Positions 17,336 to 21,642 are shown, numbered from the stretch's first letter. The stretch is 32,000 nt of DNA from Candidatus Harpocratesius repetitus (GCA_021498095.1 JAIZWK010000001.1:3900001-3932000), one strand, 5' to 3'. Made by a program: numbers and translations. Notes: a model not told the origin generated them from the sequence alone.

Positions 17336-17617
17336 CTAGAAAGGATCATCATATATATTTTCAAGATAGTATATTCCTTTTTCTGTTAATCCAAATAATT
17401 TCCCTTTTCTCCGATTAGGTGTTAGACAATGAAGCAAATCCATTTCAATTAGATGCTTTAGGATTGTACTAGTATGAGATGCAGATAAATTTAGTGAATT
17501 TGATAGATTGTTGGGAGTAGAAGGTCCGTTATATAAAAAAATTAGAATTTTTTGCATATATTTGGATGCAAGTATTTTTGAATGAATTTGCCATTTTTCT
17601 ATTTCGGAATCATCCAT
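17336..17617 (-). CDS. ArsR/MarR-type winged-helix regulator
   Basis: KILIFLYNGPSTPNNLSNSLNLSASHTSTILKHLIEMDLL...FGLTEKG. Confidence 0.85.
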   Translation of the reverse strand: MDDSEIEKWQIHSKILASKYMQKILIFLYNGPSTPNNLSNSLNLSASHTSTILKHLIEMDLLHCLTPNRRKGKLFGLTEKGIYYLENIYDDPF

Positions 17618-18329: not shown

Positions 18330-18797
18330 ATGGATTATAAGCAGTTATTAGATTTTTCCAATGCTTATGCAGTGTCAATAATTGAAGCAATGGAGAAAAT
18401 GGGTTTAGATGTGGCTCTATTGGGTTATCAAATATCTCTAACCCTTAATAAAGAAGCAAGCGATTTATTAGCGGAAACTGGCTTGAAAATTAAAGGCAAC
18501 GACGTCAAATTAATGACTGAAAGCTTTGTCTCTTCACTAAAAGAAGTAGGAGCGTGCCAAATCGCAGAGATAAAAAGTATGGATGACAAAAATATGGAAA
18601 TTCATTTAGGTGAGTGTATCCTTGCTCCAGCAAGATTTCATATTCTCAATTCACATCCGGATATTATCCCTCCTTGTCCGATGATGGCACTTCTAGTAGG
18701 TCAACTAGAAAAACAACTTGGAAAACATGTTTTTATCGATTCATGTGAGTGGAAACAACAATTGAATACAGGTATTTTTAAAGTAAGGATGGAGTGA
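18330..18797 (+). CDS. Stand-alone V4R-like (Bet3/TRAPPC3-fold) protein
   Basis: 155 aa, with a helical N-terminal half followed by MEIHLGECILA...PPCPMMALLVGQLE...IDSCE...IFKV, the V4R-like spacing. Cys at residues 76, 96, 116 and 139. Confidence 0.65.
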   Translation: MDYKQLLDFSNAYAVSIIEAMEKMGLDVALLGYQISLTLNKEASDLLAETGLKIKGNDVKLMTESFVSSLKEVGACQIAEIKSMDDKNMEIHLGECILAPARFHILNSHPDIIPPCPMMALLVGQLEKQLGKHVFIDSCEWKQQLNTGIFKVRME

Positions 18798-18803
18798 GAG
18801 AAA

Positions 18804-18929
18804 ATGTCGTTAGATTGTGTATATGCTGGTGCTACCAATTCACAAGGATTGATTTGGTGCAAAAAGAAGAATACATATGTTTCAGGTAAAGAAAAAGATA
18901 CTTGTCCTGATTATAGGAAAAAGGAGTAA
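18804..18929 (+). CDS. Unannotated 41-aa three-cysteine small protein
   Basis: Manual translation MSLDCVYAGATNSQGLIWCKKKNTYVSGKEKDTCPDYRKKE*. GGAG/GGAGTGA RBS-like sequence at 18791-18797. It fills the gap between the V4R and Roadblock genes almost exactly. Confidence 0.7.
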   Translation: MSLDCVYAGATNSQGLIWCKKKNTYVSGKEKDTCPDYRKKE

Positions 18930-18932
18930 AGA

Positions 18933-19307
18933 GTGAAGAAAATGTCTGCTTTAAGTGAAAAATTAAAGGCAATTCTTAAAAAATTAGAGCAAAATTCTGA
19001 TGTATTTGGCGGTGCTGTAGTAAATAATCGCGGCCAAATGATGGCAAGTGCTTTAATGGGAGATTATGATGAAAATACAGTCGCAGCTATGTCTGCTGCA
19101 TTGACCAGTGTAGGAATTCGGGTTGCGAAGACTTTATCGGCGGGCGATATGCTTTCAATTACTCTAAATGCTAATGATGCTGTGATATTAGTAAAACAAT
19201 TGGATCGGTCGGTATTAATTGCACTTGCTCCTACAGATGCTAAGATCGGATTAATTGAATTTGAAATTGACCAAGCAGTTGAAGAGATCAAAAAAACACT
19301 GAAATAA
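18933..19307 (+). CDS. Roadblock/LC7 (MglB-like) protein 1
   Basis: GGAVVNNRGQMMAS...VAAMSAALTSVG...KIGLIEFEI is the canonical Roadblock pattern. Start is GTG 18933 or ATG 18942. Confidence 0.9.
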   Translation: MKKMSALSEKLKAILKKLEQNSDVFGGAVVNNRGQMMASALMGDYDENTVAAMSAALTSVGIRVAKTLSAGDMLSITLNANDAVILVKQLDRSVLIALAPTDAKIGLIEFEIDQAVEEIKKTLK

Positions 19308-19354
19308 TTAGTAATTCTCAATTTTTTTAATATAAACATGATTTGGGTGAAAAT

Positions 19355-20041
19355 ATGAAAAGAAAAATAAAATTTGATTATCATATCTTGATTACAGGAT
19401 ATTTCAATGCGGGAAAAACAACATTGATTCACTCATTAGACTCGGAAGCTATTTCCATTGAAAAACCATTGTCAGAGTTTACGAAACAGAAATTACACCT
19501 TGAATCTAATTCCCAAAAAACTCACACTACGACAGGATTCGATCGTGGGTGTTTATACTGGGTAAGAAATTCCCTAGAAGGAAATGGGGTTTTAATGAGT
19601 AATAAAGATTATGAGCGGGATCAAGATGAATTTAAAGATTGGATAATAAAATTTGTCGAACTTAAGGGTGTTCCGGGTCAATCACAATTCAAGATTGTAA
19701 GGAAACTATTAAGTGATGGATCTGACGGTGTTGTGTTTCTCTTTGATGGAGTAGATCTGACAAATATAGGAAATGGGATGGCTATACTCGAAGAAACTAG
19801 GACATATATGAATTCTAATCCCATGGTGATTGTAGCAAACAAGAATGATCATCCGAATTTTTATGGATCAGAAATTATAAGTTCAATGATAGGTGAATCT
19901 GATATTTATGAAGCTTCTGCTTTGAAAAACATTGGGATAAAAGATGCTATAATTGATTTATTGAAAACTATTGAACAAAAACACATAACTTTCGAATCTG
20001 GGCAACTAACTACTTCAGTTGGAGACGGTATGAATGTTTAG
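19355..20041 (+). CDS. Ras-superfamily small GTPase, MglA/CvnD (COG2229)-like
   Basis: G1 GYFNAGKT, G2 region TTTGFDRG, G3 GVPGQ, G4 NKND, G5 SAL. GGGTGA RBS precedes ATG 19355. Confidence 0.9.
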   Translation: MKRKIKFDYHILITGYFNAGKTTLIHSLDSEAISIEKPLSEFTKQKLHLESNSQKTHTTTGFDRGCLYWVRNSLEGNGVLMSNKDYERDQDEFKDWIIKFVELKGVPGQSQFKIVRKLLSDGSDGVVFLFDGVDLTNIGNGMAILEETRTYMNSNPMVIVANKNDHPNFYGSEIISSMIGESDIYEASALKNIGIKDAIIDLLKTIEQKHITFESGQLTTSVGDGMNV

Positions 20042-20486
20042 TCATGAAATAATTAGCGAAGATCTAGAATTAGGAAATCCTTTAATCGATGAAAGACAAC
20101 TCAAGAAGTTTTTATCTCATCTTCGAGAAAATAGCGATATCTTTAATGCAATTTTATTTAACGATGACGGATTAGAAATTGCTTTTTCCGACTCAAATAT
20201 GCAAGGAAATTTTGGACATAAATTCTTCCAAGATCTTTCTGCGATCTCCTCTGGAATTATATCTATGGCTAATAGTTTAGTTTTAATGACAAATCCTTCC
20301 TCTATTGTCACTAAAGTCAATATACAAGCAAGTTGTGAAAGAGATGTAGAGAGTTTCGGGATGATCTTTACCTCTATTACCGAAGAATTTCATTTGGTTG
20401 TCGTTTTTCCTACTAATGCAAATGTAGGCTTAATCAATTTTGAAATTAATCAATTAAAAGAAAAGTTACTCACATATTTAAGCTAA
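20034..20486 (+). CDS. Roadblock/LC7 protein 2
   Basis: NAILFNDDGLEIA...LSAISSGIISMA...LVVVFPTNANVGLINFEI. Overlaps the GTPase gene by 8 bp. Confidence 0.8.
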   Translation: MFSHEIISEDLELGNPLIDERQLKKFLSHLRENSDIFNAILFNDDGLEIAFSDSNMQGNFGHKFFQDLSAISSGIISMANSLVLMTNPSSIVTKVNIQASCERDVESFGMIFTSITEEFHLVVVFPTNANVGLINFEINQLKEKLLTYLS

Positions 20487-20503
20487 GGAGAATATGAGAA
20501 AAG

Positions 20504-20977
20504 ATGTCTTCGAAAGAGAAAACATTGAAATCCAATTTAGATTTCGTACTAAAGGATTTGTTAACTCAGTTTATATCCAACATTCAAGGAAATAGTGCTT
20601 GTCTATTAACTGAAGATGGATTAACCATTGCAGAAAGCAATAAATTAGAAAATGAACAGTATGATAATAATAATGAATTTGGAGCAGTTATCGCTACTAT
20701 GCTTTCAATTGCTGAACAAGCAGTTCTACATTACAAATCAAGTCAAAATCTCTCTCATTTTTCGATTGAAACCCTCGATTTAGAATCTCCAGAGCAAAAA
20801 GGGCATATTATTTTTGCATATCAAATCTACCCCAACGTTTTATTTGCGTATAACTCCCCTAGTTCTATTCCTGATGGATTAATATCTTTTGAACGCAGTA
20901 AAACAATTCAAGATTTGCGGGAAGTTATACATGGCAATGAAGAAGAACTGATGCGAAGTATAGGATCGATGATATGA
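20504..20977 (+). CDS. Roadblock/LC7 protein 3
   Basis: SACLLTEDGLTIAES...FGAVIATMLSIAE...PDGLISFE. AAGGAG upstream. Confidence 0.8.
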   Translation: MSSKEKTLKSNLDFVLKDLLTQFISNIQGNSACLLTEDGLTIAESNKLENEQYDNNNEFGAVIATMLSIAEQAVLHYKSSQNLSHFSIETLDLESPEQKGHIIFAYQIYPNVLFAYNSPSSIPDGLISFERSKTIQDLREVIHGNEEELMRSIGSMI

Positions 20978-21633
20978 TTATGATGTATGAATCAAAAATA
21001 AGCTATGAGCAAACTCATATACAGAAGAAAAGCCGGAAAATAATCTTAGATGAAATAATCAAAACATTAAATGAAAAAGGAAATTTCGAATTGACCATTT
21101 TATTAGACGATAGAGGAATGATTCTCTCAGATTATAATACAACAATAACAATGGAAAGGGAATCTATCGCTGCTATGTTTTCTTTGATCAATACAGTAAT
21201 AAATCGGACAGTTAAAAATTTGAATCTAGAATCTAAGGAACTTATTGTAATTAAAACTAATCAAGGTGTGTTTAAAACTTGTGATTTCTCACTACAAAAC
21301 TATAATCGAAAAATGATACTAGTAGTCTATCAATCTACTATTCCTAATTCAAATGCATCATTAAAATCAACCAAGTTTAAACAGAAGAAATTCAATGATC
21401 TAGAAAAGTATCTTGGGTTCAAAATTTCATTTTGGCGTCTTTTTAAAGTTTATATTACACATAAATTAAAGATTCTTCCGGATTTGGAAAATATCTCTCG
21501 CAATATTTTTCGAATCAAGAAATTCGATTCTTTTTTTAATGATTTTGCGAAAAACAAGGTTCATGGCGAGGAATATCATTCAACCTTGTTTAAGGACACG
21601 ATTAGGGAAATTCAAGCAATTTTTAAGCAATAA
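20974..21633 (+). CDS. Roadblock/LC7 protein 4 with a long basic-aromatic insertion
   Basis: TILLDDRGMILSD...SIAAMFSLI...LIVIKTNQG...MILVVY, then about 78 extra residues before the terminal helix LFKDTIREIQAIF. ATGA overlap with Roadblock 3. Confidence 0.72.
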   Translation: MIMMYESKISYEQTHIQKKSRKIILDEIIKTLNEKGNFELTILLDDRGMILSDYNTTITMERESIAAMFSLINTVINRTVKNLNLESKELIVIKTNQGVFKTCDFSLQNYNRKMILVVYQSTIPNSNASLKSTKFKQKKFNDLEKYLGFKISFWRLFKVYITHKLKILPDLENISRNIFRIKKFDSFFNDFAKNKVHGEEYHSTLFKDTIREIQAIFKQ

Positions 21634-21642
21634 TTTTTTTTT
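21634..21642 (+). terminator. T9 tract, probable archaeal intrinsic terminator of the V4R-Roadblock-GTPase operon
   Basis: Nine T immediately after TAA 21631-21633, followed by about 650 bp with no convincing gene. Confidence 0.5.

Follow-up and report, generated by a model that had tools for sequence, protein, structure and literature searches.

A conserved Asgard operon encoding an MglA-like GTPase, several Roadblock proteins and a V4R/Bet3-fold protein paired with a cysteine microprotein: a candidate elaborated G-protein switch

Among the known systems closest to the gene cluster discussed here are the MglA-MglB systems of Myxococcus xanthus and Thermus thermophilus, in which, as in the cluster, a small GTPase lacking the aspartate of the G3 motif (xPGQ) is encoded beside one or more Roadblock genes (PMC4316618). 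MglA is under the control of an MglB dimer, and MglB in turn is bound by MglC, a Roadblock paralogue (PMC11016934, PMC7949163, PMC9481161). Known precedents are one MglA with two MglB genes and stacked MglB-MglC Roadblock dimers. For the archaeal group 4 MglA proteins, Wuichet and Sogaard-Andersen described no conserved neighbours (PMC4316618), and a 2026 paper models just a Thorarchaeota MglA/MglB-like pair. Asgard genomes harbor dozens of small GTPases, Roadblock/longin proteins and V4R/TRAPPC3-like proteins, mostly encoded outside operons (PMC10933270), and according to Tran et al. (2024, PMC10933270) the GTPase genes of MK-D1 generally do not share an operon with genes for Roadblock, longin or TRAPPC3 proteins. 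Therefore, it is hard to tell in Asgard archaea which regulator is paired with which GTPase. In this study, we analysed a stretch of 32,000 nucleotides (hereafter the window) from the closed 4.36-Mb genome of the Loki-type Asgard archaeon Candidatus Harpocratesius repetitus (GCA_021498095.1 JAIZWK010000001.1:3900001-3932000), in which seven genes at positions 18330-21633 combine one GTPase with four Roadblock proteins, a V4R/Bet3-like protein and a cysteine-containing microprotein. Homologues of the window carry Promethearchaeota, Lokiarchaeota and Thorarchaeota names, in line with a Loki-type host. We lean towards the interpretation that this cluster is an elaborated MglA/MglB-type G-protein switch, in which the GTPase would be under control of a multi-subunit Roadblock assembly and an optional V4R-microprotein pair would provide input. 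An earlier reading of the sequence alone had called the system a candidate undescribed one, and we likewise found no description of the operon in a literature search of incomplete coverage.

The seven open reading frames all lie on the + strand and are separated by intergenic gaps of 6, 3, 47, -8, 17 and -4 bp. They encode, in this order, the V4R/Bet3-like protein (g1), the microprotein (g2), a first Roadblock protein (g3), the GTPase (g4) and three further Roadblock proteins (g5, g6 and g7). Each of g2, g3, g5 and g6 has a GGAG-like motif ahead of it. A T9 tract (TTTTTTTTT, 21634..21642, +) directly 3' of the last stop codon resembles an archaeal terminator and is a putative one here. The G+C content of the cluster (0.324) and of the window (0.312) are alike. 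The open reading frame listing and the sequence thus bear out the co-oriented layout, gaps, ribosome-binding-site-like motifs and T9 tract of the sequence-only reading, and its family calls (one GTPase, four Roadblocks, a V4R-like protein and a tiny Cys protein) agree with the profile, fold and orthologue evidence given below.

The operon is conserved. Orthologous GTPases, defined by an E-value of at most 1e-35, were found in 51 of 400 Asgard genomes searched; for 60 GTPase matches the flanking ~5 kb in both directions were retrieved and all open reading frames classified, and the conservation counts refer to the 44 of 65 orthologous GTPase loci whose two flanks each extended over 2.5 kb or more. 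Three Roadblock subfamilies accompany the GTPase: an A-type protein of ~121 aa is encoded in 41/44 loci, a B-type protein of ~150 aa in 40/44 and a C-type protein (~140 aa, or a long form) in 41/44. In total, three Roadblocks are present in 17 loci and four in 22, which means that 39 of the 44 loci carry three to four Roadblock genes and that the gene set is kept together across Asgard genomes, as the earlier reading would require. Roadblock genes flank the GTPase gene in the window and in 42 of the 44 loci. A metagenome contig (L013) whose GTPase is 76% identical carries the seven genes in identical order within different flanks, and the identical order was also found in a second locus (L017) with a GTPase of 63% identity. 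Since the same gene set and order recur there, and its components are found around 65 orthologous GTPases in Asgard genomes, the operon goes beyond a chance arrangement. Co-linear order is shared by the window, the Thor-type loci and families f5 and f6. By contrast, the genes for the long C protein, B', A, g2 and g1 of Loki family f3 are divergent from the GTPase and B genes. The overlap of 8 nt between the stop of the GTPase gene and the start of the B-type gene is widespread among the loci. In several loci of Loki family f3 a TFIIB paralogue is encoded directly downstream of the GTPase and B-type pair (nine loci in all, e.g., L015:6130-7020; L133:8112-9014).

The GTPase g4 (19355..20041, +) has 228 aa when read from its ATG; a TTG at 19343 is an alternative start. 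It matches the Pfam families Arf, MMR_HSR1 and Ras, and the motifs G1 (GxxxxGKT), G3 (ELxGxPGQ) and G4 (NKxD) are invariant in 63 orthologues. The G3 motif thus lacks the Asp, and a missing G3 aspartate (xPGQ instead of DxxGQ) defines the MglA family (PMC4316618). The best match among sequences of solved structures was MglA (3e-5), with GVPGQ aligned to TVPGQ in an alignment that covers residues 102-207. Judged by its sequence, g4 is therefore classed as an MglA-like small Ras-superfamily GTPase. The structural model, with a predicted local distance difference test (pLDDT) score of 88, shows the Ras-like fold, into which an additional helix, modelled with confidence, is inserted at the interswitch. 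The protein consists only of the G domain plus a terminal helix; a Rag-type C-terminal Roadblock domain is absent, and the Pfam scan gave no Gtr1_RagA match. In fold comparison (VIA), Arl2 (Arl2/3) scored Z 20.4. Asgard ArfR followed with Z 19.3 and MglA with Z 19.2; the three are tied, and MglA has the highest identity (27%).

Profile comparisons confirmed that g3, g5, g6 and g7 belong to the Roadblock proteins and, by sequence, to the three subfamilies A, B and C. Among them g3 (18933..19307, +; 124 aa from GTG; subfamily A) matches Pfam Robl_LC7 at 4.5e-8, g6 weakly at 0.032 and g7 weakly, and no Pfam or NCBIfam match was obtained for g5 (20034..20486, +; 150 aa; subfamily B), the start of which overlaps the g4 stop by 8 nt. 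The true start of g3 may be ATG 18942 rather than GTG 18933, since the first residue of the orthologues aligns with Met4. Iterated searches from each of the four proteins merged into one superfamily within the collected loci, and hhalign connected the B family (g5) to the A family (g3) with 98.3% probability (E 1.2e-14) and the C family (g7) to the A family with 98.1% probability. All three profiles match solved Roadblock chains, namely the Asgard proteins 7f8m, 9jue and 7yh1 as well as MglB, CvnB5 and dynein LC7. The E-values were 5.6e-20 for A with 9jue (6e-19 with 7f8m, 1.3e-7 with CvnB5 and 3.7e-5 with MglB), 5e-12 for B with 7f8m (4e-6 with MglB) and 1.9e-7 for C with 9jue. LAMTOR2 was reached at E 0.04-0.09, weaker than MglB and CvnB (~1e-5 to 1e-7).

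In a maximum-likelihood tree of 195 Roadblock sequences, clade A (61 members) was recovered with a support of 0.91, clade B with 0.80 and clade C with 0.84. The four divergent Roadblocks of the sequence-only reading are all Roadblock proteins and represent three subfamilies, and sequence comparison identifies the fourth copy as a lineage-specific duplicate that differs between genomes: B' in Loki-type loci, A' in Thor-type and f19 loci. In the window g5 falls in a clade of 23 members with the Loki family f3 copies located directly downstream of the GTPase (support 0.95). The second subfamily-B protein g6 (20504..20977, +; 157 aa), the Loki-type duplicate B', clusters with g5 at a blastp E below 1e-20 and lies inside clade B and outside the clade of GTPase-downstream copies. 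Since the fourth Roadblock is a lineage-specific duplicate, the earlier idea of two heterodimers does not stand as a conserved or ancestral design: the ancestral set comprises three Roadblock types, and the 17 loci mentioned above have only three. The subfamily-C protein g7 (20974..21633, +; 219 aa) carries an insertion of ~80 aa before the last helix, which holds the conserved amphipathic motif ISFWRLFKVxIxxKL, and its look-alikes in a protein atlas are Robl_LC7 proteins and also a few LAMTOR3 (MAPKK1_Int) clusters. It groups with the long C proteins (~480-560 aa) of Loki family f3 (support 0.87), in which the C-type Roadblock domain is C-terminal (L052:7592-9202; L047:1688-3124). For the N-terminal ~320 residues of these long proteins, no family match was found save a weak coiled-coil-like one.

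The first gene, g1 (18330..18797, +), encodes a protein of 155 aa whose family is annotated as hypothetical only. It has no Pfam match at E up to 1 and no NCBIfam match, and so is not a sequence member of V4R (PF02830) or Bet3; likewise, a search of the g1 family profile against the sequences of solved structures returned no V4R or Bet3 chain, or any other match. The fold was recognized from the AlphaFold model (pLDDT 93.7). Best agreement was with TRAPPC3 6aq3 (VIA; Z 10.8, root-mean-square deviation 3.4 A over 147 of 155 residues), followed by Thor TRAPPC3 7yh3 (Z 10.4), the V4R sensors PoxR/MopR (Z 9.2-9.6) and H-NOX (Z 8-9); the identity is only 11-15%. By shape, the protein atlas returned V4R, DUF2507 and RdxA_C clusters, and the V4R and DUF2507 rows had template-modelling (TM) scores of 0.59-0.64. 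As modelled, g1 thus shows a V4R/Bet3 fold across the whole protein. Of its four cysteines (C76, C96, C116 and C139), C96 and C116 are nearly invariant among 36 orthologues and C76 and C139 vary; the cysteines would lie at the place of the Zn site that, in V4R and Thor-TRAPPC3, holds the sheet and a helix together. Searching for loci with the g1 alignment returned only Asgard loci, within a reach bounded by the search patterns used.

The adjoining g2 (18804..18929, +) encodes a Cys3 microprotein of 41 aa. It is a real gene, as 37 orthologues with a mean column identity of 62% keep three cysteines (C5, C19 and C34) and one Trp invariant. No Pfam or NCBIfam family matches it, and its protein-atlas look-alikes are unnamed 41-aa proteins only. 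The g2 gene always adjoins g1: both are present in 26 of the 44 loci, both are absent from the other 18, and neither was ever found alone. The two genes are therefore strictly paired, and the pair is optional. In several Thor-type loci (L079, L082-L084, L088, L091 and L093) the g2-like gene between g1 and the gene for the A-type Roadblock is joined by a second one, ~230-300 bp upstream of g1. A predicted complex of g1, g2 and Zn scored 0.40, compared with 0.00 for the best control, with a contact agreement of at least 92% and a partner pLDDT of at least 76. Among 80 solved complexes 58 attained the pass mark of this prediction, compared with 2 of 110 mismatched pairs; scores of at most 0.60 account for only 7 of the solved complexes that passed and for both of the mismatches. 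In this range a pass is more likely to be wrong than correct, except where the prior is good. The prior is good here because of the strict co-occurrence and adjacency of both genes, and it is conceivable, as weakly suggested by the model, that g1 and g2 bind each other. The g2 domain also occurs as the C-terminal domain of cluster-adjacent GNAT acetyltransferases in L013 (8294-8989), L017 (7218-7856, - strand) and Loki family f3 (e.g., L052:3017-4477, - strand), with 56% identity over 36 residues, and the GNATs of Loki family f3 are fused to HEAT repeats. When the window's genome was searched with the GNAT of L013, only g2 was matched and no g2-domain GNAT was found.

The GTPase family is small and distinct. 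In a search of 1.84 billion representatives, only 14 reached E 1e-30, and beyond these generic GTPases match in two pieces. Distant full-length members were found in Baldrarchaeia, Ranarchaeia and Korarchaeota. The Korarchaeota have a minimal form with the GTPase and a single Roadblock of the A-type (L155:5001-6127), and the Baldrarchaeia variant consists of the GTPase, two A-type Roadblocks and a pair of g1-like proteins of V4R fold, of which one matches Pfam RdxA_C, with GNATs on both sides (L156:4280-8147). Because the A-type is the sole Roadblock partner in Korarchaeota, we infer that subfamily A represents the ancestral MglB-like type. Together, the Korarchaeota and Baldrarchaeia forms suggest an MglA/MglB-like pair as the starting point of the system.

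Based on the MglA-MglB precedents, the following mode of action is proposed for the favoured interpretation of the cluster as an elaborated MglA/MglB-type switch. The A-type Roadblock g3 would be the ancestral MglB-equivalent and would dock as a dimer onto the switch regions of the GTPase, either by itself or with the translationally coupled g5, and might there set the rate of GTP hydrolysis and/or nucleotide exchange. Potentially, g6 and g7 stack as an additional Roadblock layer in the manner of MglC on MglB, with the C-type extension as a scaffold or membrane-binding arm. The products of g1 and g2 would form an optional input subcomplex that might bind a small ligand or a metal, and the sensor role of the V4R protein is putative. 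It is tempting to speculate that the g2 fold doubles as a docking domain, which in relatives brings a GNAT acetyltransferase to the complex. In contrast to MglA-MglB, the operon combines three to four Roadblock genes and adds the V4R/Bet3-fold protein and the Cys3 microprotein, the GTPase has a helix inserted in the interswitch, and the host is an Asgard archaeon. A further difference concerns the catalytic site. The g4 orthologues carry a conserved TTTGFD motif, and in a hand comparison with RTLFFD, which we take to be the corresponding MglA motif, a Thr occupies the position of the R53 arginine finger, so that no intrinsic arginine is present there. Because of this Thr, the system resembles MglA groups 2-5 rather than group 1. 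Several observations speak against the proposed switch. By the same hand comparison, the catalytic mechanism would not be of the group 1 MglA type; the fold of g4 is as close to Arl/Arf as to MglA (see the Z-scores above); the score of the g1-g2 complex is just a weak pass; and the spread over the 51 of 400 Asgard genomes is patchy, with no occurrence in 13 other genomes of the window's own family. Horizontal transfer into the window's genome was considered for the last of these points and is not preferred: although the cluster is absent from the 13 family genomes, the B and C Roadblocks of the window group with Loki family f3, which makes loss in the relatives as likely as transfer.

In actinobacteria, an MglA-family GTPase and a Roadblock protein likewise belong to a multi-protein signalling unit, the conservon CvnA-CvnB-CvnC-CvnD. 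It might accordingly be asked whether sensor histidine kinases have the GTPase-Roadblock module as their output in a conservon-like complex, in which V4R and the microprotein would replace CvnC. We regard this as unlikely, but it has some evidence in its favour. Homologues of PAS histidine kinases occur within ~5 kb in 28 of the 60 cluster loci, i.e., 8.8 per 100 kb (e.g., L130, L132, L133, L013 and L017), whereas among 20 loci drawn at random from these genomes 1 contained such a homologue (0.5 per 100 kb), an ~18-fold lower density from a control set that is small and against loci that are related and not independent. HisKA-receiver proteins of ~280 aa flank the cluster in 14 loci, and the match of the A profile to CvnB5 fits this explanation as well. 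The kinases, however, are not located within the operon itself. In the window, no kinase or receiver gene was found around the cluster, neither the operon nor the window contains a CvnA kinase or CvnC, and no DUF742/CvnC match was obtained among the cluster proteins in the Pfam scan; moreover, the operon has several Roadblocks and a V4R-microprotein pair instead. The absence of a kinase, as claimed from the sequence alone, thus holds for the window, while in relatives PAS histidine kinases adjoin the cluster far above the level of random loci, an enrichment that is only a lead. Less likely still is that the genes are mere neighbours without one complex, e.g., a simple GTPase-Roadblock pair beside unrelated Roadblock and V4R genes, which we consider very improbable. 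The dozens of Roadblock and GTPase genes that Asgard genomes hold mostly outside operons (PMC10933270) would allow such an arrangement, and the order and orientation of the parts differ between lineages. Nevertheless, the same three Roadblock subfamilies accompany one GTPase family in Loki-type, Thor-type and other Asgard genomes despite rearrangements and different flanks, and the genes are tightly spaced, with starts overlapping stops.

The composition of the operon also echoes two eukaryotic assemblies. In Ragulator-Rag (LAMTOR1-5, RagA/C), several different Roadblocks likewise act with a small GTPase, and with the TRAPP core and the Asgard TRAPPC3/V4R proteins (PMC10933270) the operon has in common a Bet3/V4R-fold protein, encoded here beside platform-fold proteins and a small GTPase. 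Therefore, a proto-Ragulator/TRAPP-like platform was considered, in which two Roadblock heterodimers and the Bet3-fold subunit would be a scaffold or guanine nucleotide exchange factor (GEF) that places the GTPase on the membrane and would be homologous to the eukaryotic assemblies. The four distinct Roadblocks, the best structural match of g1 to TRAPPC3/Bet3, the few LAMTOR3 clusters among the look-alikes of g7 and the conserved amphipathic insertion of the C-type, which could bind membrane, are in line with this. However, the V4R sensors are effectively tied with TRAPPC3 in the fold comparison and H-NOX scores almost equally, and g1 and g2 are absent from 18 of the 44 loci. The fourth Roadblock arose recently and separately in Loki-type and Thor-type genomes, and a LAMTOR1-like wrapping subunit is absent. 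There is one GTPase gene, where Rag GTPases act as a heterodimer, and its product is MglA-like with neither a Rag C-terminal domain nor Rab features. TRAPP, a GEF for Rab1, is built with longin subunits (Bet5, Trs23, Trs20) and not with Roadblock subunits. Because the GTPase is MglA-like without the Rag domain and the Roadblocks score nearer to MglB and CvnB than to LAMTOR2, for which the match was marginal, the likeness to Ragulator stated in the sequence-only reading stands for the combination of several Roadblocks with a GTPase and is compositional only. The defining features examined for Ragulator (a Rag-type GTPase) and for TRAPP (longin subunits, a Rab substrate) were not found here, and nothing yet marks the operon as a forerunner of either; we consider the homologous platform improbable. 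The conservon-like and the proto-Ragulator/TRAPP explanations are not fully exclusive of an MglA/MglB-type switch. A conserved Asgard operon that joins Roadblock and small GTPase genes was also described by Liu et al. (bioRxiv 10.1101/2020.10.19.343400), who reported a LAMTOR1-like Roadblock, a Rab-like GTPase and DENN; GTPase family and gene set differ from those described here. An identity with that operon was rejected, as no DENN-family Pfam match was obtained in g1-g7 or in the long C-type proteins, and a DENN/folliculin reading of g7 or its long relatives was rejected likewise, with only the weak coiled-coil-like match in place of DENN.

With respect to transcription, the spacer between g3 and g4 (19308..19354, +; 47 bp) contains a T7 run (19322-19328) followed by a TATA-like AATATAAA. 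Since the g1-g2-A unit is divergent from the GTPase gene in Loki family f3, this spacer may be a candidate internal terminator or promoter that divides the cluster into two transcription units. Upstream of the cluster, a winged-helix protein of 93 aa (HTH_27/HTH_45) is encoded on the opposite strand (17336-17617, -).

A more far-reaching possibility, to which we assign a low probability, is that the cluster encodes one stable hetero-oligomer, in which the MglA-like GTPase is held by stacked Roadblock dimers and these in turn carry the pair of Bet3-fold protein and microprotein. Such an assembly would join two building principles, the Bet3 and platform folds of TRAPP and the several Roadblock dimers of Ragulator, and would be the outcome of stepwise growth from a one-Roadblock pair as in Korarchaeota. 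The Cys3 fold would act in it as a docking tag, by which a GNAT acetyltransferase is recruited as well. If true, it would link the G-protein switch to protein acetylation, and the g2 domain in common with GNAT enzymes in itself suggests a putative link of this kind. The graded series from a GTPase with one Roadblock in Korarchaeota, over two Roadblocks with V4R-like proteins in Baldrarchaeia, to three to four Roadblocks in Thor- and Loki-type genomes could show how multi-subunit GTPase platforms grow through gene duplication. In summary, this operon provides a defined candidate set of partners for an archaeal G-protein switch, which is open to co-expression and assay.

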